64,000 nt of DNA from Candidatus Anstonellaceae archaeon (GTDB lineage: Archaea; Micrarchaeota; Micrarchaeia; Anstonellales; Anstonellaceae). Location of the stretch: NCBI GenBank assembly GCA_038891035.1, contig JAWAEW010000004.1, forward strand, positions 4,728 through 68,727, in the 5' to 3' direction. The notes below the pieces were generated by a model. The model worked only from the letters and a program-made list of their open reading frames with translations. It did no database searches and was not told the DNA's origin. Made by a program: the position numbers and the translations under genes. Of this stretch, positions 4,607 through 59,806 are shown one piece after another; positions within the stretch are counted from its first letter, which is position 1, and every line of letters starts with the position of its first letter.

Positions 4607-4630
4607 GGCAAACTTCAGTTGCCTCTCTTC
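4607..4630 (+). repeat. 3' strand of the 23S rRNA processing helix
   Basis: ggcaaacttcagttgcctctcttc is the perfect complement of 1654-1677. It overlaps the stop codon and last five codons of the convergent CDS 4615-9075. Confidence 0.85.
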
Positions 4631-9075: not shown

Positions 9076-9084
9076 ATCCCAACC

Positions 9085-20715: not shown

Positions 20716-21628
20716 TTGTCCTTAAAGCTTTAGAGATAGCATTCACACATGTTATCAGCACCACCAACACAAGATTTGGGATGAAAATTGCCTGCGGTAA
20801 AGTGGAGGAGAGCCGATAAAGAAGACTATCTTTGCCAGTTCCATCTCCAAAAGCTTGTCTGTCTTCAAACGAATGTCCTGCAATCTGATATGGATTTTGC
20901 ATGATTTTCGCATATGTATACGCGCTTAAAGCATAAACCGAAGGAACAATTATGTATAGCCCGAAAAAAAGCGCAATCAAAATATTGCCATATTCGCGAG
21001 TCATTGGAAATATCCTCATGACAAACGCAAATGGCAAAAGCACAGCAGCACCTACAAACTCCACCATTGAAAGGAGATATTTTTGTGCATTTAGGCTTGC
21101 GATTATCGGAATATAAAGATCTATTAGAAATTCTTTATGTGATGAAATTGCTCTCCACGCGGCCATATGCGCCATTCCATAACCTTGATAAGGAGTAAAT
21201 CCTACGAAAAGATAAGCAGTTGCATCAAGCTGATTGCCATAGCTGGAATAGACTAGCTCTCGCACTATCGCAAGCCCATTATTTACAAGCAAAGAATTTA
21301 TGTACGCATATGAAGCTTCGAATGGGCTTTTGCCGATGTATTCCACTGCCAAGCGGCAAGACCCTGTGAAAAATGCAAGCAAGCCGACAAGCAGTATAAC
21401 GGTAACTAGCAAATTCTGCGATTCATCCTTTGCATATGTTTCAGCCTTTATATTGTGCGCAAGCTTGCCATACATGTAAGCAATGCTTATCACAAGAGAT
21501 GCAAGCGCAAGTGCATAACCTATGAATGGGAGAGCATCAGGATGGAAATTGCTTATCTCACATACATCTGCATAATCGGCTGCAGCAACAGCAGGCACAA
21601 GCAATGCTACAATAAAAACAACATTCAT
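20705..21628 (-). CDS. paralog 2 (307 aa) of the polytopic membrane family (most divergent, tail motif degenerate)
   Basis: Has YMYGKLAHNIKAETYAKDESQ and LLPFAFVMRIFPMTREYGNILIALFFGLYIIVP. The C-terminus AISKALRTIAV lacks the LGGD motif. Confidence 0.8.
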   Translation of the reverse strand: MNVVFIVALLVPAVAAADYADVCEISNFHPDALPFIGYALALASLVISIAYMYGKLAHNIKAETYAKDESQNLLVTVILLVGLLAFFTGSCRLAVEYIGKSPFEASYAYINSLLVNNGLAIVRELVYSSYGNQLDATAYLFVGFTPYQGYGMAHMAAWRAISSHKEFLIDLYIPIIASLNAQKYLLSMVEFVGAAVLLPFAFVMRIFPMTREYGNILIALFFGLYIIVPSVYALSAYTYAKIMQNPYQIAGHSFEDRQAFGDGTGKDSLLYRLSSTLPQAIFIPNLVLVVLITCVNAISKALRTIAV

Positions 21629-21630
21629 TT

Positions 21631-22911
21631 TTACACCAATTTGCTTAAGCCATAAAGCTGCGGCTCTCCTCCAAAATAAATTATGAAATTCCTTGCTGCA
21701 ACCACCCCTATTATTATGGGAAGCAAGGAGAAAACTAAAGCAAGCACTCCATAAATGCTTGTTGCTGGAAGAGCATACTCTGTTACGTTGGCTATGGCTG
21801 CATCAATATCAACATAACTATAAAGTGAAAGAAAGGGATACATCATCATGCTAAAGCCTGCCTTTGCAATAGCAAATACATTCCTTACATCGGCCCAGCA
21901 TTGAGTTAGTGGATAACCTGTAGTCACCTGAAGCACAGGGCATATCAACAAAGCCCATCCGTTTTCCCCACTTAGAATAACCCCTCCAAATCCCCCAACC
22001 AAGCTTCCGATCGACCCACCAACACTGGAAGATATAGCAGACACCACAACTCCAAGAGGGCTTTGGATGAAGGATTGCATTACAGGGTCACATACAAAAT
22101 TTGTAAGTGGTGGATTTCTAATGTCTGGCAACACATTAATCCCTTCTATGTATTGTACAATCTGCGGGGAAAAAGTGGCATAGATTTCATGAGAAATTGC
22201 AAACGAGGCAGGATAAATCACAGAAGCCGCAATTGAAGCCCCTAAAATAGTCCCACCTATCTTTCTTGTGAGTGAAAAGCACCGCAAAAAGATACCCACG
22301 GGCAAAAAGATTGCGGCAGTATTGACAAAGAAGATTACAAATGATTTTTGCGCAGACAAAAACAAGAGATAGTTTGCAATTCCATCCATTGCAAAGCCTA
22401 ATTCTGCAATCAATGGTGCAAATCCTGCACCAGGGGTCTGAGTAAAGCTTGTGCTTACTAAATGGAGATTCAACCCGGCAGTATAAGTATATGAAGCATA
22501 TCTTGCGACATTGAAATAAGCTGTCGCAAGCTTAAGATAAAGGGCCCTTCCATCCTCTCTTATTTTTGCAATGGCATCCAAGGCGTACTGCCCTGCACCC
22601 ATCTGTTTGCCTGAAAGAAAACTTGCCGCAGCATCCGCACTTGCAATCATTCCAACACAAAATACTGCAATCAGAACTCCTGCGAAAAGTTCCTGAAGCT
22701 CTACTTTGGTCCATGCTTCAAGCAGCCTAAGCTCAAAAAAAGAACCTACCATATATGTGATCCCAATAAACGAAGCCGCAATAAGCACTGAAAGTCCAGT
22801 CCAATAGTAAACCTCTGCCTGCCACCCAGAAGCGCTTGCAAAATTTGCCAATATAAGCAAAGAAGCCGCAATTTTTGCCAAACTAGGCAGCAGCCTTTGC
22901 ATATTCGTCAT
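21631..22911 (-). CDS. paralog 1 (426 aa) of the polytopic membrane family; first gene of the operon
   Basis: Has YMVGSFFELRLLEAWTKVELQ, FLPVGIFLRCFSLTRKIGGTILGASIAASVIYP, and the tail YFGGEPQLYGLSKLV. The alternative ATG at 22902 (MQRLLPS..) lies about 28 nt from the TATA-like box and may be a leaderless start. Confidence 0.8.
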   Translation of the reverse strand: MTNMQRLLPSLAKIAASLLILANFASASGWQAEVYYWTGLSVLIAASFIGITYMVGSFFELRLLEAWTKVELQELFAGVLIAVFCVGMIASADAAASFLSGKQMGAGQYALDAIAKIREDGRALYLKLATAYFNVARYASYTYTAGLNLHLVSTSFTQTPGAGFAPLIAELGFAMDGIANYLLFLSAQKSFVIFFVNTAAIFLPVGIFLRCFSLTRKIGGTILGASIAASVIYPASFAISHEIYATFSPQIVQYIEGINVLPDIRNPPLTNFVCDPVMQSFIQSPLGVVVSAISSSVGGSIGSLVGGFGGVILSGENGWALLICPVLQVTTGYPLTQCWADVRNVFAIAKAGFSMMMYPFLSLYSYVDIDAAIANVTEYALPATSIYGVLALVFSLLPIIIGVVAARNFIIYFGGEPQLYGLSKLV

Positions 22912-25622: not shown

Positions 25623-25754
25623 CGGGCCCGACGGGAGTTTCAGCCAAACCTTTGGCTTTTGAACCCGCAGCCTTCTGGTGGCACCTGCCACACCCAGCCC
25701 ATTTGCCGGGCGCATTCGAAGCCAGACGCGCTATCCAGGTTGCGCCACAGGCCC
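25623..25754 (-). tRNA. tRNA-Arg (anticodon UCG) with two putative introns (36 nt at 37/38 and 21 nt in the T-loop)
   Basis: Minus-strand sense is GGGCCUG-UG-GCGC-AACCUGGAUA-GCGC-G-UCUGG-CUUCGA[36 nt]A-CCAGA-AGGCU-GCGGG-UUCAAA[21 nt]U-CCCGU-CGGGCCC-G. The acceptor pairs at 7/7 positions including one G-U. On the + strand the introns lie at about 25680-25715 and 25637-25657. A TATA-like box sits at 25777-25786. Confidence 0.8.
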
Positions 25755-34608: not shown

Positions 34609-35022
34609 TCACCTTTTTGAGCGCCTCCTTTTGCGCTGCTGTTGCGGCTGATATTGGGATAGCCGCTGGAAATGAGGAACATCATCCATGCAAAGCTCAA
34701 AAAATACAAGCAATATCGCAAAAAGCGAAACGATCTCAAAAATAGCTGAGATAAGCTTTGCATTTAGCTCTGAGAAGCCAAGTTGCCCTCCAAAAAACTC
34801 CACTGCAAATCCTGCCGCAAACCCAAAAGATGCCACTCCCAAGGCAGTGGCATATCTAACCGCTCTCCATTTTGCATAAAAGAAATGCACTGGTAAATGC
34901 TTCCTTGCCCTATCCCAATTCAGCTTGTAGTATGCAAAAAGCAGACTTGCAAGCACTGCAAGCACTACTTTGACCAAAAGGACAGAAGAGATTATTTCTG
35001 AAGCCTCTGGCTGTGCAGCCAT
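34609..35022 (-). CDS. hypothetical membrane protein (137 aa, ~3 TM, basic tail)
   Basis: Hydrophobic segments plus the C-terminal QQQRKRRRSKR. Confidence 0.55.
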   Translation of the reverse strand: MAAQPEASEIISSVLLVKVVLAVLASLLFAYYKLNWDRARKHLPVHFFYAKWRAVRYATALGVASFGFAAGFAVEFFGGQLGFSELNAKLISAIFEIVSLFAILLVFFELCMDDVPHFQRLSQYQPQQQRKRRRSKR

Positions 35023-35050
35023 GCCAAATTTTTGGACGCTTTAATTAAAA

Positions 35051-35467
35051 TTATTTGCCAATTTTGTCTGCTGCAATATGCGAGGCCACCCCAACAAATG
35101 CGGCAAGGCCTTCTTGCCAACCAAACAGCGCAAAGCCTGCGGCAAAACAAACCAAGGCAAAAATTAAAGTGTGCGTAATCCCCCTGTGCCTTGGCCTGAA
35201 AAGCACCCATGCAGCCCATGTCCCTGCCAAAAGCAAAAAAGCAACCAGCAAGCTTCTAAACATCAACCCTAATGCAATTGCTACAAGCACAAGGAAAAGG
35301 CGCATTATTTGAGAAATCTTGCTTGAGTCCAGGTCAATGTCTGGCAAAAGCGAAAAAAATCCGGAAATTGCGCAGATGCTGGCAAGCTTCCAGCCATCTG
35401 CTCTAAGCAACCACCCTAAAGCTGCACCGGCTACCAAACCAAAAAGAAGATGAGCCTGCCATTTCAC
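35051..35467 (-). CDS. membrane-bound metal-dependent hydrolase, YdjM/DUF457 family
   Basis: Begins ..HLLFG.., then ..LLPDIDL..S, ..RHRGITHTL.. and ..ASHIAAD.., all typical DUF457 blocks. Confidence 0.7.
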   Translation of the reverse strand: MKWQAHLLFGLVAGAALGWLLRADGWKLASICAISGFFSLLPDIDLDSSKISQIMRLFLVLVAIALGLMFRSLLVAFLLLAGTWAAWVLFRPRHRGITHTLIFALVCFAAGFALFGWQEGLAAFVGVASHIAADKIGK

Positions 35468-35476
35468 TCAAAACCC

Positions 35477-35998
35477 TCAGTACTGCAAGCTTTTAACAAA
35501 CCTCCTAAAGTGTTGCAAATAGCGCCTCATGTGGTGTTCTTGTTCAGATTGCGACATTTTTGCAAGCTCATAAGAAAGCCTCATAATTTCATAGTATGCC
35601 TCACCAAAGGCGGCATCTGAAGTTATTTCATCTTGGCTTGCTATTGAGGTTGCCTCGCACAGGTCGGCCAAATACTTAAGCTGCTCCAAAGCCTCTCTCC
35701 CTTTTTTAGTCAGCTTTAGGTGCTTCCTTGCTTTCAAGCGCTTTCGGATTGCAGAAAAAAGCATGACAAGATAATAGTATATTTGGTGCAAAATCGTCAT
35801 TTTGGTTTCTGTCTGCCGCTGGACCGTAAGATCCACAACTATTGGTGCATAGGTTTCCTGCGGAACTATAAGAAGCGCCTCTGCTTTGGGATCAACAAAG
35901 CGTTCATCCATCAACCTGCCAAACTGGTGCCTTCTCCTTTCAACTGGTCCTTCTGGCTTTTTGAGAATTGGCTGAGGCTCCTGGAAAATCTGTTCCAT
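35477..35998 (-). CDS. hypothetical protein (173 aa, one TM)
   Basis: The ORF has coherent coding character. No domain recognised. Confidence 0.5.
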   Translation of the reverse strand: MEQIFQEPQPILKKPEGPVERRRHQFGRLMDERFVDPKAEALLIVPQETYAPIVVDLTVQRQTETKMTILHQIYYYLVMLFSAIRKRLKARKHLKLTKKGREALEQLKYLADLCEATSIASQDEITSDAAFGEAYYEIMRLSYELAKMSQSEQEHHMRRYLQHFRRFVKSLQY

Positions 35999-36029
35999 AC
36001 TGGTCGCTGCTTTTATTTTTGTGTCAAGA

Positions 36030-36038
36030 TTTATATAA
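36030..36038 (+). promoter_or_regulatory. TATA box for the A+T-rich three-gene block
   Basis: tttatataa is centred about 28 nt upstream of the ATG at 36062, a spacing typical of leaderless archaeal transcripts. Confidence 0.5.
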
Positions 36039-36061
36039 TTGATTTTTCACGAAATACACTT

Positions 36062-39000
36062 ATGTTCAAACAAGAAGACACCTCTGTCTATTTTTCTAAA
36101 ACAACCACACCATATTACTTTACTAGCCTAAACAACTATAAGGAAACACTTAAGGGAACTTCTAATATAACCATCGGCTTAATTAAAGTAAAAGAAGGAA
36201 CTCTCAAAGAGATTCTCCAGCTACGTAATTCGTTTGGTTTTACAGAAGATCAAATCAAATCTTTGGTACCTTTTGGGACTCCTGATAGATCTGCTCCAAC
36301 AAACATAATTGAAAGCAAAGATTATCTTTTACAAAAATATGGCGATTCCTACAGGATTTTTAAAAAAAATGTAGATCCTGTAGAAAGCCTCCAAAATGCG
36401 CTTTCTCCTTGGCAGATAAAAATAGATAAAGATGTTGCATCTCAAATCGTCAACAACTTAATTTCTACAAAAGGAAAAGATTATTCAATAGGCGTTCAAT
36501 CAAATGGTAAGGATTATGTACTTCGCTTCTCTTCTTTAAGTAATGGAACAACTTATTCTCTAAGTGTTTTTGAAACAAATATCCTCACAGAACAAATGCG
36601 AACTGAGATTGTTTCAAACTTTGAAAATTTTGAAAATCACTATAACTCAAATCCTGATTTCAAGAAGAAATGGGATAACTTTGCTTTGCTTAGGCCATTT
36701 CTTGTTGAAAAGATTATCACAGGAATGCAAAGTGAGATAAGAGAAATTTTTAGAACTTTTTCAGAAGGTCTTAATCATCACATCATTGCTGAGATCAACA
36801 AACCAATAATAACTGAAGGAATCGTTGGTTATGAACAAAAGAATTTGAACCTAAAAAGCAATGGTAATTACTATGATATTGAGTTTTTGTCTTCACCAAA
36901 TATTAAAGCTTTTGAAAATGATCTAAAAAAATATGGATTCAAAGAAGACGAAATCAAAAAAGCCAAAAAGCTTGACGAAACCACTATTTATTACCTCAAT
37001 AATAGACCCTATCGTTATTACAAGCACGGTTATTATGAAATAAGAAACGACGGTCAAAGTTCATTTATTGCACAAAGGACAAAGGACGGAGAATATGAGC
37101 TTATCTTAAGGATTAAGAAATCATACCTGGATGATAACAAGACCCTTAAACTGGGGGACTGGACTATTAGCAAGGCACAAAAAGATAGTGCAACCTTGAA
37201 AATCCCAATTTACGGCCAAAAAGAGGAACCTAACTTTTTCAAAAAGAACATTGAGGCCTACACACTTTATATTAGACCTTTAGATCCTAACTCAATCAAG
37301 CAGCTAGAGAAAGAAGGTGTAATATTTGAAGGAGAAGATCTAAAAACAATTGAACAGCTCTTATACAACTTATTAAAACCTTCTATGTTCGATTATTTAT
37401 TAAGAAATAAGATCAAAACCGCAATCTCAAACATTAAAGATCCAAAATACGGCTTTTGGGATATTGATAGTGGTGATTCTAGATTACAGATTAAAAAAAT
37501 AGAACAGGGTAGAAAATTCCAAATAATAGATAAGCTTTTAATAGGAAAACAAATCGAAAATGGAAGGCTTATAGGAAGCTTCCAATATAATGTTTCAGAA
37601 AAAAACGGCCGCGTCTGGCTTTCAACCTATCGTTATAGCGGGCTTTACTATTTAGATCCTTATGCTATTGGAATGTTTTCTACTGCTGTCAAAGGATTTG
37701 TAGAAGGATTAAGCGGAATAGTTACAGATCCTATTGAATTTTTCTTACCTTTTTTGAAAAGACCAAATGCTGTTGTCGAAAATGCAGTAAAGAACCCTAC
37801 GCCTGAAAATATACGAAATGCAGCTTTCGCGTTGGATATGTGGATGGTAGATTCACTCTTGACATCAACAGGATATGGTATAGTTATAAGCAAGGCCGCT
37901 TTAAAAGTTGTTGGACGGAGCCTTTCAAAAGCAACCTTAAGAAAGTTAGGTGAAAAGATAACTAATGGGGGTATAATAGATAATCTTGCAAACCACCATG
38001 ATGAAATCTTCAAAATTTTGATGGATACCAATCTAAAAAATGGGTCGTCAGTAGATAATATAATAATCAAGTACGTCGGCGAGGATATATATCGTAAAGA
38101 TCCAATCCAAGCGATCCAGAAGTTTTTTGATTCTCCTGACCCTCTTTTGATGCCTTTGAAAAGAGAAGTAGCAGAAGCACTCGGTGTCGACCTCACATTT
38201 TCTAATCTTGCCAAAGGAGCTGCAACAGCTGTATCTAAAACTGTGACTAATGTTGAAAGATATGCAAAACCCCTCCATCATTATTTAGACGATTGGACAG
38301 AACACGTCGCACAAAAGTTGCTTAGCGTTGACAAGCAAGAGTTTTTACAGATAGACTTCTTACCTTCTATTCAGTCATCCCTTGAGAAACTTCTAAAAAA
38401 TAAACTGCAGAATCTAAAGATTGATATCAGCGAAATTTTGTCAAGAAAAGAAGTTCTTGATGCGTATGAAAAAGCACTCAATTCTCTAAGTGCAGAAGAT
38501 ATTATAGAATATCTGAATGCAATTAAAAAGGAACTAATCAAAGAACTCAAAAATTTGAAAGCAGATAAAGAAATTATTGACTACGTTGAAAAAGGCATCA
38601 CTTCTCCTCAGATAACAGGCAGGCCATTAGGCTCTGTTGGGCGGAAATTAACTGCGGAAGGTGCTCTCCTAGGTGAAATGTTAGAGGATATCATGCTGAA
38701 AGCGCAAATCAAAAGGCGTCTAATAAGCTCATTAAAAGACATTAGTGAGGAAGAAATCGGCCGTCAGGTAGATAATGTTTGTAAGAACATTAATTCTTGG
38801 AAAAGCAAGGAAGATTACATTAACCAATTCAAACAACATGTCAAAAACCTTGATGGAGTAAGCAAACAAATAATAGATGCAGTAAATTCTCTCAAACCAC
38901 AAGAGATTCAAATCATTCCCATGGGTGCTCTTGTTTCAAAACAAGCAATTAAAAAAACTAAAAATTTACCCAGTAGTAGTGGAAAGCCTCAATTCCTCAA

Positions 39001-40084
39001 TAGTATTCAAGATGCAAAAGACTCATACTCAATCCATATGTTTGGGGATGAACAAATCCTGCTTGGCTCACTTGCAAAGAAGGCAGATAAACTCGTCGAC
39101 CTTCCAAACGAAATTATAAAAATGGAAGAATATCTTGCAAGATTCGTAGGCTTAAAAGACAGTCGCATTCTTAGGTTTATGAATGAAGACGATTTTATCT
39201 CCACTTTAAATAAAACTAAATATTCAGAAAAATACAAAGAATATTTAATAAAATCGTTTAAAGACCTTCGAGATCGATATATTCAATATACCTCAGGTAA
39301 TTCTATAAGCGAAGCTTTCTTTATCGATTGCTCTTCCTTTGTTCAAAAAATGAAGAAAGCAAAGAATTTCAATTTCTTGAAGAATAGGAATCGACTGCAA
39401 ACTATTATGCATGAACATCTATTCGATGCGATGAACGCAGTAAACGCTTATACAAGACGCCAAGAACTTATACAAAGTTTCATAAGTAAAATGGATGAGG
39501 CCAAAATTGAATTTAACAAGCAAATAAGAGACAAACTAGAAAAAGGGATAATCTCAGGTGAAGAACTAAAGAAGCTAGAAGATGAGATCATAAATAAGAT
39601 AACTACTAATCAACAGTTGCAGCAAACACTCTCTGAGATCAGGAAACTCTCACTACAAATCGATTCATTTATCAAGGATACCATGTCGTATAAGTTCTTT
39701 AAACTCATGACTGATCTAGAATCATTCAGCAAAGTCGTGTCAGCTGTTATTAAGATCGGCAACTCTATCTTCAAGAGTAGTAAAGAATTTTTCACCTTAA
39801 TAAATAACTATCCCGAGCTTAAGATAACCATTATGGGATTAGTAATGTCAGAATATATAGAAGCATTATCGCAAAAAAAAGTCCCCCCAATTGACGATCT
39901 CATCAGAAATGCAAACGGACAAGTTTCCTCTCCAACTATCCTAAATAAACGCGGAGCCAAATCTACAATACCAGAAGAATTGGAAACTCCAGAAGAATTG
40001 GAAACTAAAAATTCAGGTCAAGGTGAATCGAAAAGAATAGATATAGATCCCAATCAGAATAAATATCTAAAACCAGATTTTTAA
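36062..40084 (+). CDS. orphan giant protein (1340 aa), N/K/I/E-rich, Cys-poor, no signal peptide
   Basis: The ORF-track start at 35720 lies inside the opposite-strand gene, so the ATG at 36062 (MFKQEDTSVYF..) is used. A central hydrophobic patch lies near 37641-37910. An 18-nt perfect tandem repeat occurs near the 3' end. Confidence 0.8.
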   Translation: MFKQEDTSVYFSKTTTPYYFTSLNNYKETLKGTSNITIGLIKVKEGTLKEILQLRNSFGFTEDQIKSLVPFGTPDRSAPTNIIESKDYLLQKYGDSYRIFKKNVDPVESLQNALSPWQIKIDKDVASQIVNNLISTKGKDYSIGVQSNGKDYVLRFSSLSNGTTYSLSVFETNILTEQMRTEIVSNFENFENHYNSNPDFKKKWDNFALLRPFLVEKIITGMQSEIREIFRTFSEGLNHHIIAEINKPIITEGIVGYEQKNLNLKSNGNYYDIEFLSSPNIKAFENDLKKYGFKEDEIKKAKKLDETTIYYLNNRPYRYYKHGYYEIRNDGQSSFIAQRTKDGEYELILRIKKSYLDDNKTLKLGDWTISKAQKDSATLKIPIYGQKEEPNFFKKNIEAYTLYIRPLDPNSIKQLEKEGVIFEGEDLKTIEQLLYNLLKPSMFDYLLRNKIKTAISNIKDPKYGFWDIDSGDSRLQIKKIEQGRKFQIIDKLLIGKQIENGRLIGSFQYNVSEKNGRVWLSTYRYSGLYYLDPYAIGMFSTAVKGFVEGLSGIVTDPIEFFLPFLKRPNAVVENAVKNPTPENIRNAAFALDMWMVDSLLTSTGYGIVISKAALKVVGRSLSKATLRKLGEKITNGGIIDNLANHHDEIFKILMDTNLKNGSSVDNIIIKYVGEDIYRKDPIQAIQKFFDSPDPLLMPLKREVAEALGVDLTFSNLAKGAATAVSKTVTNVERYAKPLHHYLDDWTEHVAQKLLSVDKQEFLQIDFLPSIQSSLEKLLKNKLQNLKIDISEILSRKEVLDAYEKALNSLSAEDIIEYLNAIKKELIKELKNLKADKEIIDYVEKGITSPQITGRPLGSVGRKLTAEGALLGEMLEDIMLKAQIKRRLISSLKDISEEEIGRQVDNVCKNINSWKSKEDYINQFKQHVKNLDGVSKQIIDAVNSLKPQEIQIIPMGALVSKQAIKKTKNLPSSSGKPQFLNSIQDAKDSYSIHMFGDEQILLGSLAKKADKLVDLPNEIIKMEEYLARFVGLKDSRILRFMNEDDFISTLNKTKYSEKYKEYLIKSFKDLRDRYIQYTSGNSISEAFFIDCSSFVQKMKKAKNFNFLKNRNRLQTIMHEHLFDAMNAVNAYTRRQELIQSFISKMDEAKIEFNKQIRDKLEKGIISGEELKKLEDEIINKITTNQQLQQTLSEIRKLSLQIDSFIKDTMSYKFFKLMTDLESFSKVVSAVIKIGNSIFKSSKEFFTLINNYPELKITIMGLVMSEYIEALSQKKVPPIDDLIRNANGQVSSPTILNKRGAKSTIPEELETPEELETKNSGQGESKRIDIDPNQNKYLKPDF
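39971..40006 (+). repeat. perfect 18-nt tandem duplication (ccagaagaattggaaact x2) encoding PEELET-PEELET
   Basis: Read directly: 39971-39988 equals 39989-40006. Confidence 0.9.
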
Positions 40085-40125
40085 ATATTGATTGAAATAT
40101 TGAATAAATGTGAAGAGGTGTTCAT

Positions 40126-42666
40126 ATGAATCAAAACACACAACAAAAATCTGTCAATCATATTGATGAATTTAATAGATATGCCAATTGGTGTATGTCC
40201 TTTTCTACTAAATATGGCAATTCTTTCAGGAAAGAAGGAGACAATATTGAAATAGTTGATAACAGAACTGAAAGCAATAAAATACAGATAACAAAAAAAG
40301 AAATCGGAGACTTATTTTATAATTTCAAGCAAGTCAAATATCATTTTGACCAACTTACCAAACAAGGTCTAAATAACGAAGAAATCAAGGAGTTATTCTC
40401 TACTCTAGAACTATGGAAGTATTTCTTCTTTGGCAACCTACCGTGGGATACTGATCACAAAGCCAAAGATGTAATTTCCTCATTTCAAAACATGAAAGAT
40501 CTTTTTATGTATAAAACTTGGGTAACAGAATTCAAAGGTGCAAAAAATGACCAAGACAAAATAAATCTTTGGTACAATATCAAAAAGGTTTTCAACTTGG
40601 CAGATAAGCATGTGAAGGATAAAAACTCTACTGTTGAATCTCTCTCTAATCAAGTCTATAATGATATAATTAAAGATGTTGAGAAAATCAAAAATAGATA
40701 TTTTAAAGGTCTTGATTTAAACACATTACATAATGAGAAAGAAAAAATCATAGATTCATATAATAAATCCGTAATAGCTTCTTCTCCGACAAGCAAAAAG
40801 ACCAATCAACCAGCACCCTCAAATATAGTGCTAACAGCAGAGCAAATATACAAACAAAATAAATACCTCCAAGCAGCAGCAACAGTCGATTTCGATAATG
40901 CCCCAAATGCAACAAGAAGACTCTTGGTTTCATCAGGTCTTCTTACTGAAGAACAGTTGGAAAAACCAAATGAGACCATTCAAGCAATATTTACTTCGTT
41001 TTATACCATGAAGCTTGTTAGAGAAGAAAACGCTACAAAAAAGACGATACAACTTCTCAAATCCATCATGGAAAAGGACGGGGTTGAAATCACCCCGGAA
41101 AACATCCTCAAATATCTATGGAACGAACAAGAACAAAGATCAAGGCTTGCCGAAGCGATGGTAGGCCAGCAAATTGGCGATAAAAAAGTAAGTCAAGGGA
41201 ATGCAAAGTGGTGGGAAGGCATATTTAAGATAGTCTATGAGCGTTCTGGGGCAACTCAAGTGCAAGTTCCGACTCTCCAAAGTGAGCATAATGCTCTTCT
41301 TCGCCAGGCAGAAGAGCTCATTAACAATGCAACAGACTACCAAAAACAGCAGCCAGCATTCCAGTCGCTCACTACAGTCTATCAAGCAAATAAAAATTTA
41401 GCTCCAGCAGACATTACAAAAGAGACGAACAATGCACTCAAGAATGCGATTGAAGAAGCCAAAAAGGTCCCACTTTCTCCTGAACAGAAGTTAGGGGCCC
41501 AGCCAAAGCGCGGTCTTTATTCCTACAAAAACGAATTTGCCAACATAAATCATCCATTGGCAAAACATCTCCACGAAGAGTTACAAAAAAATGCAGACTA
41601 TCTTTCAGTCATAGCATCATCTCTGTACGGAAAGATAGACCAAGAAAGTAGGATAGCAGCGTCTATACTAGCAGAAGATTATGTAAATGCAGTCAAGTCA
41701 AACATTGAATTTTTTGCAAAGTTTTACGACCAGTCAAAGACTTTCGGAGAGAATGTAGTTCAATATTACAGAAATCTTCAAGTATTAGATTTGATTTCAT
41801 TGCTTGGAAAAAGAGTGCCAATTGATAATCAAGGCAATACCGCACTTTATACTACAACAAGCTATTTCATTGACAGGGGATATATAAAGAAAGAAGGTGA
41901 AAAATTTATTACAACAGATGACGCCCCGCAATTGCTTAAAAATATGATGAAAAGAGGATCTTGGGTAGGAACCGCAGAGCAAATACTAAATCAAGACGCA
42001 TTTGGGATCCTTGCGTATTTTGGGCTTGCGACTATTGACAAGAAAGGCAAAGTGAGTCTGGATGAAGCAGCATTAAATAAGCTCTCCAACGAAGAGCAAG
42101 AGATACTAAAGAACTTTGTAAATAAGTACAACTCTGACAAAACAGGTGCAATATACGAAAGTGAGCCAGGCAAGTCTTCACCCGCAGAAGTTATGGTTAA
42201 GCTTGTAAGGAGTCACATGCATTCCATTTCAACCCAGACAGGAACCGAAACACAAACCAAAAATGAAACCCCACCACAAGGAGGCCAACAAGGAAAGCAA
42301 AAGAAAGAACCGAACACATCGCCCTCTACTGGAGAGAAAGAGTCTATCTCAGGTGACGGGTGGTTCTATGGGTATCTTTATAGGTATAATAATGAGCTTG
42401 CAAACATTCCAGAGCTGAAGAATGTGCATGATATATTAAGTAATCAGTGGAATGAGTTGGTTAATGAAATCGTTAAGCTCAAAAATGAACCCACATATAC
42501 ACATGTTCAAGGCGTGGATGCGGATGAGATTATAAGACAAGGTGTATCTAGTCTTGGCAAGGTGTATGCTCTTCTCGACAAAGATTCAAAAGACCGTCTT
42601 AAAACGTTCGGACCAGGAGAGCTAGCGTCGTTCTTTGTTCTTAATTATGTAAAAGAAGGTAATTAA
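40126..42666 (+). CDS. orphan large protein (846 aa), Q/N/K-rich, one Cys, no signal peptide
   Basis: GAGGTG Shine-Dalgarno-like site 7 nt upstream of the ATG. No recognisable domain. A low-complexity T/Q/G/K linker lies near aa 700-740. Confidence 0.8.
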   Translation: MNQNTQQKSVNHIDEFNRYANWCMSFSTKYGNSFRKEGDNIEIVDNRTESNKIQITKKEIGDLFYNFKQVKYHFDQLTKQGLNNEEIKELFSTLELWKYFFFGNLPWDTDHKAKDVISSFQNMKDLFMYKTWVTEFKGAKNDQDKINLWYNIKKVFNLADKHVKDKNSTVESLSNQVYNDIIKDVEKIKNRYFKGLDLNTLHNEKEKIIDSYNKSVIASSPTSKKTNQPAPSNIVLTAEQIYKQNKYLQAAATVDFDNAPNATRRLLVSSGLLTEEQLEKPNETIQAIFTSFYTMKLVREENATKKTIQLLKSIMEKDGVEITPENILKYLWNEQEQRSRLAEAMVGQQIGDKKVSQGNAKWWEGIFKIVYERSGATQVQVPTLQSEHNALLRQAEELINNATDYQKQQPAFQSLTTVYQANKNLAPADITKETNNALKNAIEEAKKVPLSPEQKLGAQPKRGLYSYKNEFANINHPLAKHLHEELQKNADYLSVIASSLYGKIDQESRIAASILAEDYVNAVKSNIEFFAKFYDQSKTFGENVVQYYRNLQVLDLISLLGKRVPIDNQGNTALYTTTSYFIDRGYIKKEGEKFITTDDAPQLLKNMMKRGSWVGTAEQILNQDAFGILAYFGLATIDKKGKVSLDEAALNKLSNEEQEILKNFVNKYNSDKTGAIYESEPGKSSPAEVMVKLVRSHMHSISTQTGTETQTKNETPPQGGQQGKQKKEPNTSPSTGEKESISGDGWFYGYLYRYNNELANIPELKNVHDILSNQWNELVNEIVKLKNEPTYTHVQGVDADEIIRQGVSSLGKVYALLDKDSKDRLKTFGPGELASFFVLNYVKEGN

Positions 42667-42667
42667 A

Positions 42668-44986
42668 ATGTCAAACGGTCAAAAAATCATTATGCCAGAG
42701 CAACAATTCAAGCAGCAACATACCGACCCAATTTCTCTCATAAATGAGCTTCTTGAAGCCAAAACAAAAGAGCAAATGCTTAGTATTTTTTCGAAATACA
42801 GCAAAAATCTTAATATTAGCGATCTGCTAGAAATAAGTAACATTTTATCAGAAAATGTTGATATAAATCAAATTAAGTTGCATCTAATGAGTCTTAAATC
42901 TCGCATTTCAATAGCCCGGATTTCATCAACGAACCAAAACACTTCTGTTCAACAACCAACATCTAATGAATTTAAACTTCCGTCTTCCGAATTTTTCAGG
43001 GAAATATGGACACGCTATCGCCTTGGTTTACCTCTTTTTGAAGCATCATTGTGGACAAAATATTTTTTGATGTCAGGAGTTATACCTTCGCCTTATAATC
43101 CATCTAGTTTATCTCTCAGAAGACAAAATTCTCTTTTTATAGGAAGTTGGCTGCTCCGTCAAGAATATGAACCAATTCCAGAATGGGCCAGACGATTGTT
43201 TCTCTCCCCTCCATCAGTTGCTGAAAATCCAACTGGATTTGAGGCCACTTTTGGTTATAAAAATTTAACATTTTCCTCAATTGATAAAGAAGGGAACATA
43301 GGCGAACCATCTACATCTCCAATCAACGAACTTTTATTGGATCTTACTGTGTCAGGTTTAGGTGTTTCAAAGAATGTAATAATCAATAAACTTAATCTAA
43401 CTACAGGTTATTATCAAAAAGTTGACGCGCAAACTTCCGCAGAACTTGACCTATTGTTTAAGCAAGACGAAAATAAAATTGTCGGAAGGACATTCGTTTT
43501 TCTTGAAAACAAGCGCTGGGGGTTTGCCCAGGGATACTACAAGGATGAAACTGGTTGGTATGCTTTGAATGCCTATATGCAAGATGGAAAAATACTTTAT
43601 GGCGATGCTGCCGGCTATGTTGATCTTGAGAGTATAAGAGCAGCAGCGAATTATAAAAAAATTGGTCCAAACGATCTTTTCGTCACAGTTATAGAGGTTC
43701 CTCAGACGGAATCTTCAGTTGCTATACAAAAAACACCTCATTATAAGGAAGCCGTTGCTGAGCAGAAAGTTTTAGATAAGGTTTCAGTAAGCTTTGGTTA
43801 TTTTGAGACTTCGCCAGGTTTCTTTGCTTCAAATAAGATAAACGAAGCAAAAGGCATAACCTTTGGGGGTGGCACTGATGCTTGGCGTGGTTCAATTTAT
43901 CTTGCCACAGAAGATAAAGACAAAATAAAGCACCTCAATATAATTGGGCTTTCAGCAGCAATTCAAAAGAAAACCTATCTTTCCATTTTTCTCAGAGGAA
44001 ACAACAATGGCAAACTTACTCACGCGAATACCAGTCTTTCCACTTCATTCAATATTTCAGATGATGTAGAGCTATCAACCTCAATAAATCAGATATTCAC
44101 TGATGAAGGAAAGCTAAAGACCAAAGGTTCAATTCAGCTATTTTTAGGTTCTGGTCAAGATAAATCAAGGATAGGAATTGGTTATGATGACGTCACCGCA
44201 CAAGATTTTTTCAAAAAAACAGATGATCTTATCTGGCGGGCTAGATACGTTCACGATATCCCCACTCTTCTTACGCAGCTTTCTAATTTTCTTGAGGAGG
44301 AGATTCATCCCCGGGCCCCATATCCAAAATACCAAGTCGAAATCGAGAACAATTTTCTTGGAGGCACGCTTACCATAAGCAATAATGGCATAAGTTTTAC
44401 TCATAAGAAAACCAACACAAATGTCGCAGTTTTCACCGAAAATCTGAAAAATCTCGACAAACTACAGTTTAGTGATCTTAAAGTTGCATTAAGCAATAAT
44501 AATTTCTCTGCGATACTCGACAAGGAGGGAGTTGATGTAGGTATAAAAAATGTGGATATTGGGAGTGTTGAAATTCCAACAATAGCAGGCCAGATTACTG
44601 TTGGAAAGAAGGGAAGTCGTCTGAAACTTCTCATCCATCAAAAAGACCACGGAATTGGACTTGGTGCAGGCGTAGTGCCGCTGACCTTTATTGTTCAAAA
44701 TGAGCGAATTAATGTTAATAACGCTAATATCGGTGATTCCTATAGTCAAGTTAAGGTTAAGTTTGGTACATTTGAGTATAATATTTCTAATGACAGTGTT
44801 AAATTTTCTATCAACACTACTTCTATCCCTATTAGTGGTAATAGCATTTTTGTATTTAGTACTTCATTTGGGGGTGTTAAAGATATTGGAGGATGGAAGT
44901 TGGAGTTTGGTGGAAAGCTCTCTTTCTTGGGTTACAAAAATCAGCGGGATACTAATATTTTTTTGACTTTTGGGCTAAAACAATGA
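42668..44986 (+). CDS. orphan large protein (772 aa), Cys-free by my reading, C-terminal half strongly beta-strand patterned
   Basis: Starts 1 nt after the upstream stop. Alternating hydrophobic/polar strands run from about 43780 to the end (..RIGIGYDD.., ..QVKVKFGTFEYNIS.., ..WKLEFGGKLSFLGY.., ..NIFLTFGLKQ). Confidence 0.8.
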   Translation: MSNGQKIIMPEQQFKQQHTDPISLINELLEAKTKEQMLSIFSKYSKNLNISDLLEISNILSENVDINQIKLHLMSLKSRISIARISSTNQNTSVQQPTSNEFKLPSSEFFREIWTRYRLGLPLFEASLWTKYFLMSGVIPSPYNPSSLSLRRQNSLFIGSWLLRQEYEPIPEWARRLFLSPPSVAENPTGFEATFGYKNLTFSSIDKEGNIGEPSTSPINELLLDLTVSGLGVSKNVIINKLNLTTGYYQKVDAQTSAELDLLFKQDENKIVGRTFVFLENKRWGFAQGYYKDETGWYALNAYMQDGKILYGDAAGYVDLESIRAAANYKKIGPNDLFVTVIEVPQTESSVAIQKTPHYKEAVAEQKVLDKVSVSFGYFETSPGFFASNKINEAKGITFGGGTDAWRGSIYLATEDKDKIKHLNIIGLSAAIQKKTYLSIFLRGNNNGKLTHANTSLSTSFNISDDVELSTSINQIFTDEGKLKTKGSIQLFLGSGQDKSRIGIGYDDVTAQDFFKKTDDLIWRARYVHDIPTLLTQLSNFLEEEIHPRAPYPKYQVEIENNFLGGTLTISNNGISFTHKKTNTNVAVFTENLKNLDKLQFSDLKVALSNNNFSAILDKEGVDVGIKNVDIGSVEIPTIAGQITVGKKGSRLKLLIHQKDHGIGLGAGVVPLTFIVQNERINVNNANIGDSYSQVKVKFGTFEYNISNDSVKFSINTTSIPISGNSIFVFSTSFGGVKDIGGWKLEFGGKLSFLGYKNQRDTNIFLTFGLKQ

Positions 44987-45002
44987 TCTTAAACGCTTTC
45001 AA

Positions 45003-45074
45003 TGGACCCGGGGGGATTCGAACCCCCGGCCTCCTGCTTGCAAAGCAGGCGCGCTACCACTGCGCCACAGGCCC
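45003..45074 (-). tRNA. tRNA-Ala (anticodon UGC), 72 nt, no encoded CCA
   Basis: Sense is GGGCCUG UG GCGC AGUGGUA GCGC G CCUGC UUUGCAA GCAGG AGGCC GGGGG UUCGAAU CCCCC CGGGUCC A. The G3:U70 alanine identity pair is present. A TATA-like atataaaaa lies about 30 nt upstream. Confidence 0.92.
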
Positions 45075-45133
45075 ACGCCAACGCTTGTTTTTTTCAAGGA
45101 AGCATTTTTATATCGAACTGCCAAACTTAACGC

Positions 45134-45469
45134 ATGGGCCTGCTTGAGCTAATCAAGAATATGCTTAAGCCTAAGTCCCCACTTGCTTCCCAGAAGGCAA
45201 AATGCCCAAAATGCTCTACCCAGCTTGAGCTTGGCGCAGAGCGCTGCCCTTCATGCGGAACTCATGTAGAATCGATGTTTGCTATTTCCTGCCCAAAATG
45301 CAAGGAGCAAAATCCACTTAGGGCAGAAAAATGCTCCAAATGTGGCTTTTCGTTTGTCCAGCAACAGGTAGGAACTGGGAAAGTGATTTATATCTGCCCA
45401 ATTTGCGGATACCGCGCCGATTATTTCATGCTTTCCTGCCCATCTTGCGGAGTAAAATTTGTAAGCTAA
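45134..45469 (+). CDS. multi zinc-ribbon protein (111 aa)
   Basis: Three CPxC..CxxCG pairs: CPKCSTQ..CPSCG, CPKCKEQ..CSKCG, CPICGYR..CPSCG. Confidence 0.7.
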   Translation: MGLLELIKNMLKPKSPLASQKAKCPKCSTQLELGAERCPSCGTHVESMFAISCPKCKEQNPLRAEKCSKCGFSFVQQQVGTGKVIYICPICGYRADYFMLSCPSCGVKFVS

Positions 45470-45870
45470 TTTATAAGCCTAAATTTGTAGCCATAGTGTA
45501 TAAGACCTTCTTCAGAATCTTCAATTATTCTTCTGAATACCATTTCAACTTTATCGCCTATACTGACTTTTTTTGCTCCTACAATCTGGGCAGTAAGCCG
45601 CGGTCCCTCATCAAGCTCTACAATTGCCAAAATATAGGGCACTTGCTTTTCAAATCCAGCAGGCCCGGCGGTCACCTCAGTAAAGGAATATATTTTGCCC
45701 CTGCCTGAAAATTGCCTGCTTTCTATTTTTCCTTTCCTGCGGCACTTTGGGCAAAGCTTTCTTGCAGGAAAGTAGCTGGTTTGACAATTTCGACAATATG
45801 TACCAACCAGCCTATATCTTTCTGGTATCCTTCTCCAGGTTATTGCAAGGTTTTCAGATGGCAAGTTCAT
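45466..45870 (-). CDS. DUF35 OB-fold/zinc-ribbon protein (scaffold of the archaeal thiolase/HMG-CoA synthase complex)
   Basis: CRNCQTSYFPARKLCPKCRRKG zinc ribbon plus an OB-fold-like C-terminus. It lies directly downstream of the thiolase gene. Confidence 0.85.
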   Translation of the reverse strand: MNLPSENLAITWRRIPERYRLVGTYCRNCQTSYFPARKLCPKCRRKGKIESRQFSGRGKIYSFTEVTAGPAGFEKQVPYILAIVELDEGPRLTAQIVGAKKVSIGDKVEMVFRRIIEDSEEGLIHYGYKFRLIN

Positions 45871-45875
45871 CCCCC

Positions 45876-47036
45876 CTAAACTTTCCTGAATATATGCACC
45901 ACCGCAGTAGCTCCAGAGCCGCCTACATTATGAGTCATGCCAATTTCGCAGTCTTTTACCTGCCTGCCTTCTGCCTTTCCACGAAGCTGCCAGACAATTT
46001 CCACAGCTTGCTTTACCCCAGTTGCGCCAACCGGATGACCGCAACCTTTCAGCCCTCCAGAGGTGTTTACTGAAATTTCTGCATTAAGTGCAGTTTTTCC
46101 CTCCTCTGATGCCTTCCCTCCTTCACCCTTTGGGAAAAAGCCCAAATCCTCTATTGCCATAATTTCAGCAATCGTAAAGCAGTCATGAACCTCCACAACA
46201 TCAATGTCTTTTGGGGAGAGTCCGGCTTGCTGATAAGCTTTTTTTGCTGCAATTTTCGTGCTTTTTAGCTCAGTCATGTTTTCCCTTGAGTGAAGTGCAA
46301 GCACATCTGAGGCCTGTGCAGATGCGACTATTTCAATTGGCTGCTCACAGTAGTGCTTTGCCTTTTCAAGCGGCATCAGAATTGCTGCTGCAGCGCCATC
46401 TGTAATGGGCGAGCAGTCAAAAAGCTTAAGCGGAGATGCGATGTATTTGCTTTTCATCACAGTTTCCACAGTTATCTCATTTTGGAAATGAGCATACTTG
46501 TTTTTGGCGGCGTTTGCATGGTTTTTAACTGCAACTGAAGCCATCTGCTCTTCTGTTGTGCCGTACTGGTGCATGTGCCTTCGTGCCATAAGAGCATAAA
46601 TTGCAGGAAAAGTTGCTCCCATAAAAAGCTCCCATTCTTGGTCACCTGCTCCACCAAGTGCAGAGGCAACTTCATTGCCAGGGGTGTCAGTCATCTTCTC
46701 CACCCCACCAACCACTACGCAATCATGCATGCCAGAGGCAACTGCCAAGTATCCTGTCCGCAGTGCAACCCCCCCAGAGGCGCAAGCCGCCTCCACTCTG
46801 GTAGATGGGATGGGTGTAAGGCCCATAAAGTCTGCCACCAATGCACCTACATGCTCCTGCCCAACCAGTGAACCAGGGGCCATGGTCCCAATATAAAGTG
46901 CGTCAATCTCTTCCCCATGAAGATTGGCATCCTCTACCGCTCTTACTCCTGCTTCAATTATCATATCTCTAAATCCACGTGTCCATTCTTCCCCGAATTT
47001 ACTCATCCCTACGCCAACTATTGCAACTCTTCTCAT
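45876..47036 (-). CDS. acetyl-CoA C-acetyltransferase (archaeal thiolase)
   Basis: Has MRRVAIVGVGMSKFG.., the active-site region ..VEAACASGG.., and C-terminal ..GHPVGATG.. and ..NVGGSGAT... Confidence 0.9.
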   Translation of the reverse strand: MRRVAIVGVGMSKFGEEWTRGFRDMIIEAGVRAVEDANLHGEEIDALYIGTMAPGSLVGQEHVGALVADFMGLTPIPSTRVEAACASGGVALRTGYLAVASGMHDCVVVGGVEKMTDTPGNEVASALGGAGDQEWELFMGATFPAIYALMARRHMHQYGTTEEQMASVAVKNHANAAKNKYAHFQNEITVETVMKSKYIASPLKLFDCSPITDGAAAAILMPLEKAKHYCEQPIEIVASAQASDVLALHSRENMTELKSTKIAAKKAYQQAGLSPKDIDVVEVHDCFTIAEIMAIEDLGFFPKGEGGKASEEGKTALNAEISVNTSGGLKGCGHPVGATGVKQAVEIVWQLRGKAEGRQVKDCEIGMTHNVGGSGATAVVHIFRKV

Positions 47037-58500: not shown

Positions 58501-59152
58501 GCTTCAGGCGAAAACCGCAACAGAGACAAAAAAGCCTCACCCCTTGCTTCAAGACGCTCCATTCTTTATTGGAGGTGATCTATCCGCAGGTTCCCCTACG
58601 GATACCTTGTTACGACTTAGCCCCCCTCACCTATCTTTGGTTCGACAGCGCCAAGAAGCGCCGCCTCACCAAAAACAAGCTTGGGTGACTTGACGGGCGG
58701 TGTGTGCAAGGAGCGGGGACGTATTCACCGCTCGATGATGACAAGCGATTACTAGGGATTCCAGCTTCATGAGGGCGGGTTTCAGCCCTCAATCCGAACT
58801 TAGACCAAGTTTGTGGGATTAGCTTCCCCTTTCGGGGTCGCAGCCCATTGTCTTGGCCATTGTATGCCACGTGTAGCCCGTGAGATTCAGGCCATACTGA
58901 CCTACCGTCGCCCCCTCCTTCCTCCCACTTAACGCGGGCAGTCTGAACAGGGTGCATCTCCCCCGGAGGGGAAATTAGCAACTGTTCACGAGGGTCTCGC
59001 TCGTTACTCGACTTAACGAGACAGTTCGCACCACGAGCTGACGATGGCCATGCAGCACCTCTCGGCTCGTCTAGCAAGATCTTTAGTCTGGCCTTCATCC
59101 TACCGTCGCTCACGGTAATATTCCTGGCGTTGTATCCAATTGAACCGCAGCA

Positions 59153-59195
<43 letters not shown>

Positions 59196-59377
59196 ACCTT
59201 GCGGCCGTACTCCCCAGGTGGCAGACTTAACACCTACGCTACAGCACTACAGTGGCCCGAAGCCACTGTAACACCACAGTCTGCATGATTTACTGCTAGG
59301 GCTACTCGGGTATCTAATCCGATTCGTTCTCCTAGCCTTCGACCCTCACTGTCAGACGCGTTTTGGTCAGGCGCCTT

Positions 59378-59420
59378 GGAGGTTTGCCAACCATCTGCTA
59401 AAAGTTGGTTGTCAAACTTT
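59378..59420 (-). other. 43-nt insertion in 16S (between GGCGA and AGGCGCC of the ~720 region)
   Basis: The canonical ..cgccttcgccactggtgg.. is interrupted. The insert folds as a 10-bp hairpin (GUUUGACAACC / GGUUGGCAAAC) with one mismatch. Confidence 0.7.
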
Positions 59421-59622
59421 CGCCACTGGTGGTCCTTACAGGATCAACTGATTTTACCCATACCCCGTAAGTACCCCTGACCTCCCCCGCTCTCAAGCCC
59501 ACCAGTATCCACTGCGCGCCTTGAGGTTGAGCCACAAGATTTCACAGTGGACTTAGAGGGCCAGCTACGGTCTCTTTAGACCCAATATTCGTGGACACCA
59601 CTCGTTCTGCCAGTATTACCGC

Positions 59623-59650
59623 GTACCGTGCGCCGATGCGAAAAGCGCAT
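59623..59650 (-). other. 28-nt insertion inside the universal 515 primer site of 16S
   Basis: Sense reads GUGCCAGCCGCC[AUGCGCUUUUCGCAUCGGCGCACGGUAC]GCGGUAAUAC, against the canonical GUGCCAGCCGCCGCGGUAAUAC. Boundaries are ambiguous by about 2 nt. Confidence 0.75.
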
Positions 59651-59758
59651 GGCGGCTGGCACTGGTCTTACCCAGAACTTATTCTGCGAACTTTTTAGGT
59701 TCGCCAAAAGACAGTCGACATAAGCCGGCTGCCACTCAGAGTCCCCCTATCACGCTTT

Positions 59759-59806
59759 TGCACCATGCAAAGCAGGATGCAAATTGCAAAGCCTGCTTTG
59801 CATGTT
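59759..59806 (-). other. 48-nt insertion in 16S (within ACAAUGCGCGAAAGCGUGA region)
   Basis: Contains a perfect 13-bp inverted repeat, catgcaaagcagg (59764-59776) / cctgctttgcatg (59792-59804), around an internally palindromic loop. Confidence 0.75.

Follow-up and report, generated by a model that had tools for sequence, protein, structure and literature searches.

The SPEARE proteins of Nanohaloarchaeota are large, lineage-specific DPANN proteins proposed for host interaction. Polymorphic toxin loci of the contact-dependent inhibition (CDI) and Rhs types are recombination-driven cassettes, in which a conserved N-terminal body is joined to a variable C-terminus and the gene downstream is linked to it (PMC3482391). 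In Micrarchaeota, which are described as having a single membrane and an S-layer, the proteins mediating host contact are still to be identified (PMC11329633). The stretch analyzed here, called the window throughout, is 64,000 nt of DNA from a Candidatus Anstonellaceae archaeon (Micrarchaeota, DPANN), and all coordinates are window positions. It harbors a block of three large co-directional genes on the forward strand, g1 (36062-40084, 1340 aa), g2 (40126-42666, 846 aa) and g3 (42668-44986, 772 aa, the last gene of the block), lying next to a tRNA-Ala(UGC) gene. These open reading frames (ORFs) were confirmed with the sizes given in the original prediction, which had taken the block for horizontally acquired cargo at a tRNA hotspot. 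Our comparison of related genomes shows that in at least 10 of them the locus stays at one position, while its proteins have diverged beyond recognition. We tentatively read the block as a resident, clade-specific, hypervariable locus of Anstonellaceae-type Micrarchaeota, with g3 as a porin-like protein at a membrane or cell-cell interface, an explanation that we prefer and rate slightly below an even chance.

A block of large, Cys-poor genes occupies this slot, beside the same tRNA-Ala, in at least 10 related genomes of Micrarchaeota. In the related locus L083 (related loci are numbered in this way), the order is CysRS, p189, p137, YdjM and p173, followed by block genes of 144, 811, 910 and 758 aa and then by tRNA-Ala, Zn-ribbon, OB, thiolase and HMG-CoA synthase genes; of these products, the one of 910 aa is homologous to g2 and the one of 758 aa to g3. 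The whole order recurs in the sister genome L084, whose left flank is complete, and in L087. L008 has both flanks with part of the order, and the block was found with one flank in L004, L005, L006, L011, L082, L085 and L086. The examined relatives whose thiolase is at most 78% identical have other genes at that site. No empty site was found: every relative with this tRNA-Ala in the locus has the block, and the loci of block-lacking relatives lack the tRNA too. In all block-bearing loci that were checked (all but L087), exons of tRNA-Ala lie beside the last gene, and none of eight block-lacking loci has them. Six loci allowed the terminal exon to be placed, and in these the last gene stops 3-25 nt from the tRNA 3' end; in the window the block adjoins this end as predicted, 15 nt beyond the g3 stop codon. 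The block reading frames (772-1512 codons) are intact in 9 of the 10 block-bearing genomes, in A+T-rich DNA, the exceptions being L087, which is fragmented, and L004_571, which is interrupted by an assembly gap. In L087 (ENA ERZ25039480 contig_137081), CysRS and thiolase are split into many short ORFs like the block genes, and this fragmentation probably reflects a frameshift-rich long-read assembly rather than true decay. No integrase or recombinase domain was detected in g1-g3, in the six genes to the left or in the four genes to the right, and no integrase was found among the called genes of L083, L084, L085 and L087. A repeat search of 35000-46000 returned no copy of the tRNA 3' end, and the sole block-spanning pair was 34 nt at 74%, inside p173. 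With the same-slot block in at least 10 related genomes, and neither integrase nor att-like repeat, the proposed recent foreign insertion at a tRNA hotspot was given up. That the block is instead a resident, clade-specific locus forms part of the explanation preferred above and is put forward with the same reserve.

The block is A+T-rich relative to its flanks, and the sliding-window analyses bear out what had before been seen in spot counts. Its G+C content is 35.6% against 42.4% for the whole window, which is the lowest among 221 sliding windows of 8925 nt. A systematic scan gave 31-40% G+C per kb in the block and 42-49% in the flanks. GC3, the G+C content of third codon positions, is 0.30-0.34 in the block against 0.35-0.49 in the neighboring genes, and GC1 and GC2 are likewise lower. 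Block G+C is below flank G+C in 9 of the 10 related loci, with offsets of -5 to -13 points. In the synteny comparison the position of the block is conserved, which speaks against insertion, and its composition is atypical. Across the ten loci, block G+C scales with flank/host G+C (r = 0.77). Since it tracks the G+C content of each host, the composition fits a block that has resided there for long under a bias of its own better than import from one common A+T-rich donor.

The window was compared with a sister metagenome-assembled genome (MAG), JAWAKW010000001.1 (Candidatus Anstonellaceae; L001/L084), whose thiolase is 100% identical. Synonymous divergence (dS) between the two has a background of 1.19 in CysRS, 1.38 in p189, 0.9 in p137, 0.86 in IF2 and 1.27 in PAP2. 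A low-divergence tract was found in YdjM (0.05), p173 (0.009), g1 (0.009, from 12 substitutions with dN/dS 0.18) and codons 1-400 of g2 (0.004). Codons 401-700 of g2 are intermediate (0.18), and in the g2 C-terminus and g3 dS is saturated and not measurable. The right flank (Zn-ribbon, OB and thiolase, 0.06-0.09) constitutes a second low-divergence tract. By sliding identity, 35100-41170 is about 99.7% identical to the sister against a nucleotide background of about 83%. On the simplest reading of these sequences, this tract marks recent recombination or transfer, and the haplotype of g1 and the N-terminal part of g2 would have spread recently.

The tract is followed by an allelic cassette (42222-45000, forward strand) that comprises the g2 linker, the g2 C-terminal domain and all of g3, and that has an unrelated allele in the sister. 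In blastn, DNA similarity to the sister ends at 42221/42222, in the g2 linker, and is found again from 45001 on, immediately beyond the 3' end of the tRNA; between 42222 and 45000 there is no DNA similarity to L001/L084 except for 94 nt at 71%. The g3 alleles of window and sister have 25-30% protein identity, within flanks more than 97% identical. The same gene in the window, L084, L082, L083 and L005 gives alleles that are 24-34% identical to one another, and the thiolases of these relatives are 100% (L084), 95% (L082), 88% (L083) and 84% (L005) identical to that of the window. The window g3 is also present in the Logan assembly of SRR27730023. Because the recent-transfer tract takes in flanking genes of an ordinary kind, namely all of p173 and part of YdjM, it points to homologous recombination and not to site-specific integration. 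The simplest reading is that homologous recombination moves old, deeply diverged cassettes of g2 C-terminal domain plus g3 between lineages, and such exchange would leave near-identical strains with very different g3 alleles. The tRNA-Ala would then serve as a homology arm rather than as an att site. The part of the original prediction that concerned horizontal acquisition is accordingly divided: the exchange is real, with dS of 0.004-0.009 against about 1 and an unrelated allele of the g2 C-terminus and g3, and it is not a recent foreign insertion. We had to moderate the idea that mobility makes the block better conserved than its flanks, since YdjM and p173 lie in the tract as well and there are further tracts of low divergence.

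Over 32776-57044, identity to the sister forms a mosaic. It rises from about 83% (32.8-35.0 kb) to about 99.7% (35.1-41.2 kb), is 97-99% over 45.0-47.4 kb, falls to 70-87% over 49.4-53.4 kb and reaches 94-98% over 53.8-57.0 kb. This mosaic may reflect either frequent inter-lineage recombination or chimeric MAG assembly. Its extension outside the block would also fit a rival explanation, in which g1-g3 are structural proteins of this lineage (cytoskeletal, scaffold or storage-like) with little constraint, under relaxed selection and A+T bias, the allele difference being a by-product of pervasive recombination. The block proteins are indeed N/K/I/S-rich and include low-complexity stretches, and dN/dS is not above 1 where measurable (0.18-0.5, on very few substitutions). 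We consider this explanation quite unlikely. The frames of 772-1512 codons are intact in nine of the ten block-bearing genomes. Conservation also extends to the order of the genes, to the core domain of g2, to the strand signature at the C-terminus of the last genes and to the MF[LIV]FQ start, all described below. Moreover, g3 alleles as different as these within such similar flanks need ancient alleles kept in the population, and not drift alone.

Searches of g1-g3 against Pfam, NCBIfam, PHROGs, PADLOC and PDB sequences gave no significant domain match, and the searches of 13-20 syntenic proteins in these libraries and with PDB profiles were likewise without a significant result. About 20 block proteins from 10 genomes, run against Pfam and NCBIfam, have no enzymatic domain, and the only match was TPR in L006_1021. 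A search for catalytic motifs (Walker A, nuclease, protease and others) found none that is conserved; there are none in g1-g3 and isolated single matches in three homologues. IMG/VR viral contigs, INPHARED phages (tblastn) and PLSDB plasmids hold no relative of the block, and BFVD gave nothing specific. The suggestion of virus- or plasmid-derived cargo found no support, there being no viral hallmark and no relatives in phage, plasmid or viral-contig collections. An older event may be considered, in which the ancestor of the clade received a virus or mobile element at tRNA-Ala that was then domesticated or decayed, g1-g3 being structural or host-recognition remnants (e.g. spike- or fibre-like). 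This would be compatible with a resident locus. It would explain why block and tRNA-Ala co-occur, the scanned relatives with thiolase at most 78% identical having neither, as well as the orphan families and the G+C below flanks in 9 of 10 genomes. The conserved N-terminus, variable C-terminus and swapped downstream gene resemble phage tail-fibre cassettes, and tail fibres are among the weak BFVD matches. Nevertheless, no integrase, replication, capsid, terminase or other hallmark gene lies in or beside the block in any genome, there is no direct repeat of the tRNA 3' end and no relative in the three collections named above, and the G+C content has ameliorated to each host. The transfer tract, furthermore, includes p173 and part of YdjM, and the right flank is the second low-divergence tract. 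We consider an ancient element quite unlikely.

The gene upstream of the last gene belongs to the g2 family in seven of the eight syntenic blocks where it is covered, and none was recognized in L004. BLASTP and iterated hidden Markov model (HMM) searches among the syntenic proteins identified W_g2 (the window protein), L001_856, L083_910, L086_970, L011_817, L085_975 and L006_1021 as members. A scan of JGI metagenomes with the g2 profile led to one locus, L086. A word-indexed protein search with this profile returned only the g2 of the window and that of the sister, a weak negative in which known relatives were missed. The AlphaFold2 (AF2) model of g2 is all-helical, with a mean predicted local distance difference test score (pLDDT) of 49, and its comparison with PDB folds gave no match, the best E-value being 1.5. 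The only stretch aligned across the family is a conserved core domain of about 190 residues (40828-41460, forward strand, aa 235-445), which is 34-38% identical to L083_910 and L086_970 and helical, with pLDDT 75-91 for aa 260-445. Residues 1-700 are 86-100% identical to sister L001_856 per 50-residue block, with 100% identity through residue 300. A T/Q/P/K-rich low-complexity linker follows (42232-42396, forward strand, aa ~703-757), at which the break in identity to the sister starts, and then a variable C-terminal domain of about 90 residues (42397-42663, forward strand, aa 758-846), which is swapped together with g3 and is about 35% identical to the sister allele. The variable residues match no toxin family and are conserved as a family motif, GDxWF...YRYNNEL..I..L..IH.IL being kept across the g2 family. 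Since both are swapped as one unit, this domain probably docks g3.

The last gene of the block is beta-rich everywhere and belongs to several mutually unalignable families. The g3 type is found in the window, L084, L082, L083, L005 and L085 (split there into 567 + 263 aa), so that the family is present in at least six loci; the other last-gene families are L004_1466 with L006_1512, L008_1429 with L086_1268, and L011_1351. Besides the window protein, just six cluster representatives at 50% identity among 1.84 billion proteins belong to the g3 family, and each of them comes from this slot. A word-indexed protein search with g3 returned only the protein of the window itself, a weak negative given that known relatives were missed, and the JGI metagenome scan yielded no match to the g3 profile. 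An hhalign comparison of the g3 family with the L004/L006 last-gene family gave no significant match. The sole link between these otherwise unalignable families is a common C-terminal motif, P[FW]D...GGxK.

The AF2 model of g3, built from a multiple sequence alignment of seven sequences, shows a helical N-terminal part (aa 20-135) and a beta-meander (aa 189-771) with about 30 long antiparallel strands. In a Foldseek search of the PDB, all 33 matches of the model with E <= 1e-3 are outer-membrane barrels (AlgE, porins, ushers/FimD and FadL), and a BFVD fold search gave only phage-borne porins and weak tail-fibre matches. This low-confidence model suggests local beta-meander likeness only, not a demonstrated barrel. 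Classical outer-membrane proteins (OMPs) have a C-terminal signature consisting of an alternating hydrophobic strand with a terminal aromatic residue. Of 11 last genes, 8 end in an amphipathic strand of loose pattern, as do 38 of 969 background ORFs (Fisher p = 2e-9); the strict pattern is found in 4 of the 11 and in 7 of the 969. The last residue is F or W in 6 of the 11, with C-termini such as ..LTLRYNF (L082), ..INFTLDYRW (L083), ..LRLRYTF (L085) and ..KLDVNVKF (L086); others end in ..RFNVF and ..LRFVVF. The pore-former guess of the original prediction finds some, if weak, support for g3 in the beta-meander and in the OMP-like C-terminal strands of its homologues, and none in OMP profiles. 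With moderate commitment, we suggest that the g3 product probably works at a membrane or cell-cell interface and that diversifying selection acts on it there.

Several observations weigh against this explanation. The g3 model has low confidence, with a mean pLDDT of 48.7 (64-81 for aa 350-500) and a predicted template modelling score (pTM) of 0.41, and its Foldseek matches, in spite of a probability of 0.9-1.0 to AlgE/porins, have TM-scores of 0.09-0.31 and a root-mean-square deviation above 22 A. The window g3 has the alternating strand and ends in ...FLTFGLKQ, which is non-aromatic. No profile similarity to any OMP family was found in Pfam or in PDB sequence and profile searches; a Pfam scan of 13 last-gene proteins gave one Porin_4 match with E = 6.9, and the PDB profile search was empty. 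In cells described as having one membrane and an S-layer (PMC11329633), it is not obvious where a porin would be placed. On g1-g3, neither a signal peptide nor a transmembrane helix nor any known sorting signal was detected, which leaves export unexplained. Crude hydropathy, used here in place of SignalP, showed neither a hydrophobic N-terminus nor a 19-residue Kyte-Doolittle segment of at least 1.6 in any of the three proteins; in the same kind of test for an OMP signal peptide, the N-terminus MSNGQKIIMPEQQFKQQ has no hydrophobic core, and its homologues are alike. The g2-g3 contact is deduced solely from co-replacement. Finally, both genomes compared are MAGs and mosaic identity occurs also elsewhere (53.8-57 kb), so chimerism or pervasive gene flow could inflate the apparent sweep.

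The lack of signal peptides and transmembrane segments would be expected of a cytoplasmic conflict system made of novel proteins, an anti-virus defence or addiction-type module, in which an arms race drives divergence and no export is needed. Such a system would also account for the extreme allele divergence between near-identical strains, the recent lateral spread of g1 and the g2 N-terminal part, the compositional deviation and the operon-like coupling of large genes. However, PADLOC gave 0 matches for g1-g3, and neither a conserved catalytic motif nor an enzymatic domain was found. Defence islands usually vary in content and position, whereas here the slot and the pair of g2 and last gene are fixed, and the beta-meander and C-terminal strand signature are atypical of defence proteins. 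We regard a conflict system as unlikely.

Under the preferred explanation, that of a resident hypervariable locus, the conserved unit would be a pair formed by a helical g2-family protein (core, linker and small C-terminal domain) and a beta-rich last gene ending nucleotides away from the convergent tRNA-Ala, with large lineage-specific genes such as g1 added upstream. The g2 body and the invariant tRNA-Ala, together with the genes beyond it, would supply the two homology arms for cassette exchange. The g3 product would be a porin-like beta-sheet protein at a membrane or cell-cell interface, either in the symbiont envelope or in the host membrane, where diversifying, frequency-dependent selection from hosts or viruses may act. 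The low G+C may be explained by fast evolution under A+T-biased mutation and by the N/K/I/S-rich composition, and not by a foreign donor. A bolder proposal is that the last genes form a new archaeal family of porin-like beta-barrels with a C-terminal strand signature of bacterial style, free of Sec signals and delivered, perhaps with g2 and an MF[LIV]FQ tag, to the symbiont-host interface of Micrarchaeota, where they would form or gate a conduit, cassette exchange serving host-range or antigenic variation. This we consider very unlikely.

The genes of the block are coupled as predicted, with gaps of 41 nt between g1 and g2 and of 1 nt between g2 and g3. A TATA-like box, TTTATATAA (36031-36039, forward strand), was read directly in the sequence 22 nt 5' of the g1 ATG at 36062; its spacing, already remarked on in the prediction, fits a leaderless transcript or a very short leader, and its function as a promoter is presumptive. 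A Shine-Dalgarno-like GAGGTG (40114-40119, forward strand) is located inside the g1-g2 gap, 6 nt before the g2 ATG. GTG-TTC-ATA-TGA (40117-40128) overlaps that ATG and looks like a possible decayed MF[LIV]FQ start. In related loci that together cover about 1.3 Mb, the start motif M-F-[LIV]-[FL]-[QY] heads 11 ORFs with a length of at least 150 aa. Block genes, mostly of the g2 family, make up nine of the 11, and the motif usually lies 5-8 nt after GGTG/GAGG (L083:4728, L083:7259, L085:3056, L086:3230, L008:11908, L008:14352, L011:18960, L004:9752 and L087:9164). The window g1 begins with MFKQ. The MF[LIV]FQ start may be a locus-specific N-terminal sorting or processing tag. The Cys-poor character of the products also stands, with 2 cysteines in g1, 1 in g2 and 0 in g3, and hydropathy and family libraries were negative for a signal peptide or known domain. 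N-glycosylation sequons are not enriched.

The g1 gene was found only in the window genome and the sister genome, where it is 99.6% identical (JAWAKW010000001.1). A word-limited search among 5.8 billion protein clusters gave no homologue and missed even this sister copy. Phage, plasmid and viral-contig collections contain nothing similar, and iterated HMM and phmmer searches found no relative in the other syntenic blocks. The genes upstream of g2, here g1, are lineage-specific additions, and with moderate commitment we regard g1 as accessory.

The left flank consists of CysRS, two small genes (p189 and p137), YdjM and p173. The last of these (35477-35998, reverse strand) encodes 173 aa without a Pfam domain, is divergent from g1 and is a conserved left neighbor of the block; its homologues adjoin YdjM across from the block in L083 (44-46% identity), L008 (40%) and L084 (99%). 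On the right, tRNA-Ala(UGC) (45002-45075, reverse strand; ARAGORN and Rfam) is convergent with g3 and represents the conserved right anchor and right recombination boundary. It is followed by a conserved Zn-ribbon (DZR) gene of 111 aa (45134-45469, forward strand) and by genes for a DUF35-type OB protein, a thiolase and HMG-CoA synthase (mevalonate pathway). The tRNA-Ala(UGC) gene is intronless in the window, L084 and L082, and has one or two introns in L004, L005, L006, L008, L083, L085 and L086, located after 37/38 and in the T-arm/T-loop region; that of L083 is split by two introns (L083:12293-12507). ARAGORN and Rfam found this tRNA only in the closest genomes, because introns split it in the others, and the impression that it is absent from relatives was overturned by an exon-sequence search. 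In L011, the segment with tRNA-Ala and Zn-ribbon (L011:11617-12138) is inverted relative to all other block-bearing loci. In the relative L012, a Cys-rich ORF of 823 aa (74 Cys) adjoins the thiolase operon.

Some further features of the window were recorded. The only other markedly low-G+C stretch is 5001-8000 (34-38%), at the start of the Cys-rich operon 4615-22911. A tRNA of 132 nt at 25623-25754 (reverse strand), presumably intron-containing, was detected by Rfam and not by ARAGORN. The archaeal 23S rRNA (1677-4609, forward strand) and 16S rRNA (58570-60183, reverse strand) are unlinked, 54 kb apart on opposite strands, and the 16S match of 1614 nt against a model of 1478 positions suggests an insertion or intron.

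For host contact in Micrarchaeota, the locus offers a concrete candidate that can be tested. It is unusual in its fixed position, in a tRNA anchor that is apparently a homology arm and not an integration site, and in being swept between lineages with a background dS of about 1 while keeping g3 alleles 25-30% identical. If g3 is truly barrel-like, it bears on the existence of membrane beta-barrels in archaea. If the genes are only fast-evolving cytoplasmic orphans, they would still illustrate cleanly how an uncultured archaeon exchanges cassettes, though the interest would be modest.

Compared with bacterial outer-membrane beta-barrels (AlgE, general porins, FadL and the FimD usher), g3 has a similar up-and-down antiparallel beta-meander, and the last genes have alternating-hydrophobic C-terminal strands that often end in F or W. 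They differ in that the archaeal host has no known outer membrane or BAM machinery, and in that g3 has a helical N-terminal region of 130-190 residues and no signal peptide. Compared with SPEARE-type host-interaction proteins, g1-g3 are similarly large and restricted to a narrow DPANN lineage with a contact-dependent lifestyle, but those proteins have adhesion or enzymatic domains and secretion signals, of which g1-g3 have none. Like tRNA-linked islands and integrative elements, the block abuts a tRNA 3' end, deviates in G+C and consists of orphan genes; unlike them, it has no integrase or att duplication, occupies the same site in all sampled clade members and is exchanged by homologous recombination that includes flanking housekeeping genes. 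The differences from CDI/Rhs and phage tail-fibre or adhesin-chaperone cassettes lie in the parts. The block has no toxin, RHS/YD, filamentous haemagglutinin, tail-fibre or chaperone domain and no domains of the T5SS, T6SS, T7SS (type V, VI and VII secretion systems) or RHS types, genes for secretion or virions are missing from its surroundings, it belongs to a DPANN archaeon, and the downstream g3, with 772 aa and beta-rich, is not a small immunity protein or chaperone. Judged by the features tested, among them the absence of an empty site, the block is a member neither of the tRNA islands nor of the tail-fibre or polymorphic-toxin cassettes. The arrangement is the same, in that a g2 body of about 700 residues is kept while the C-terminal ~90 residues and the next gene are replaced together, with breakpoints within conserved flanks. 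New protein families, restricted to a single clade of Micrarchaeota, here take part in an exchange pattern of a known type, that of a recombination-driven hypervariable cassette locus.

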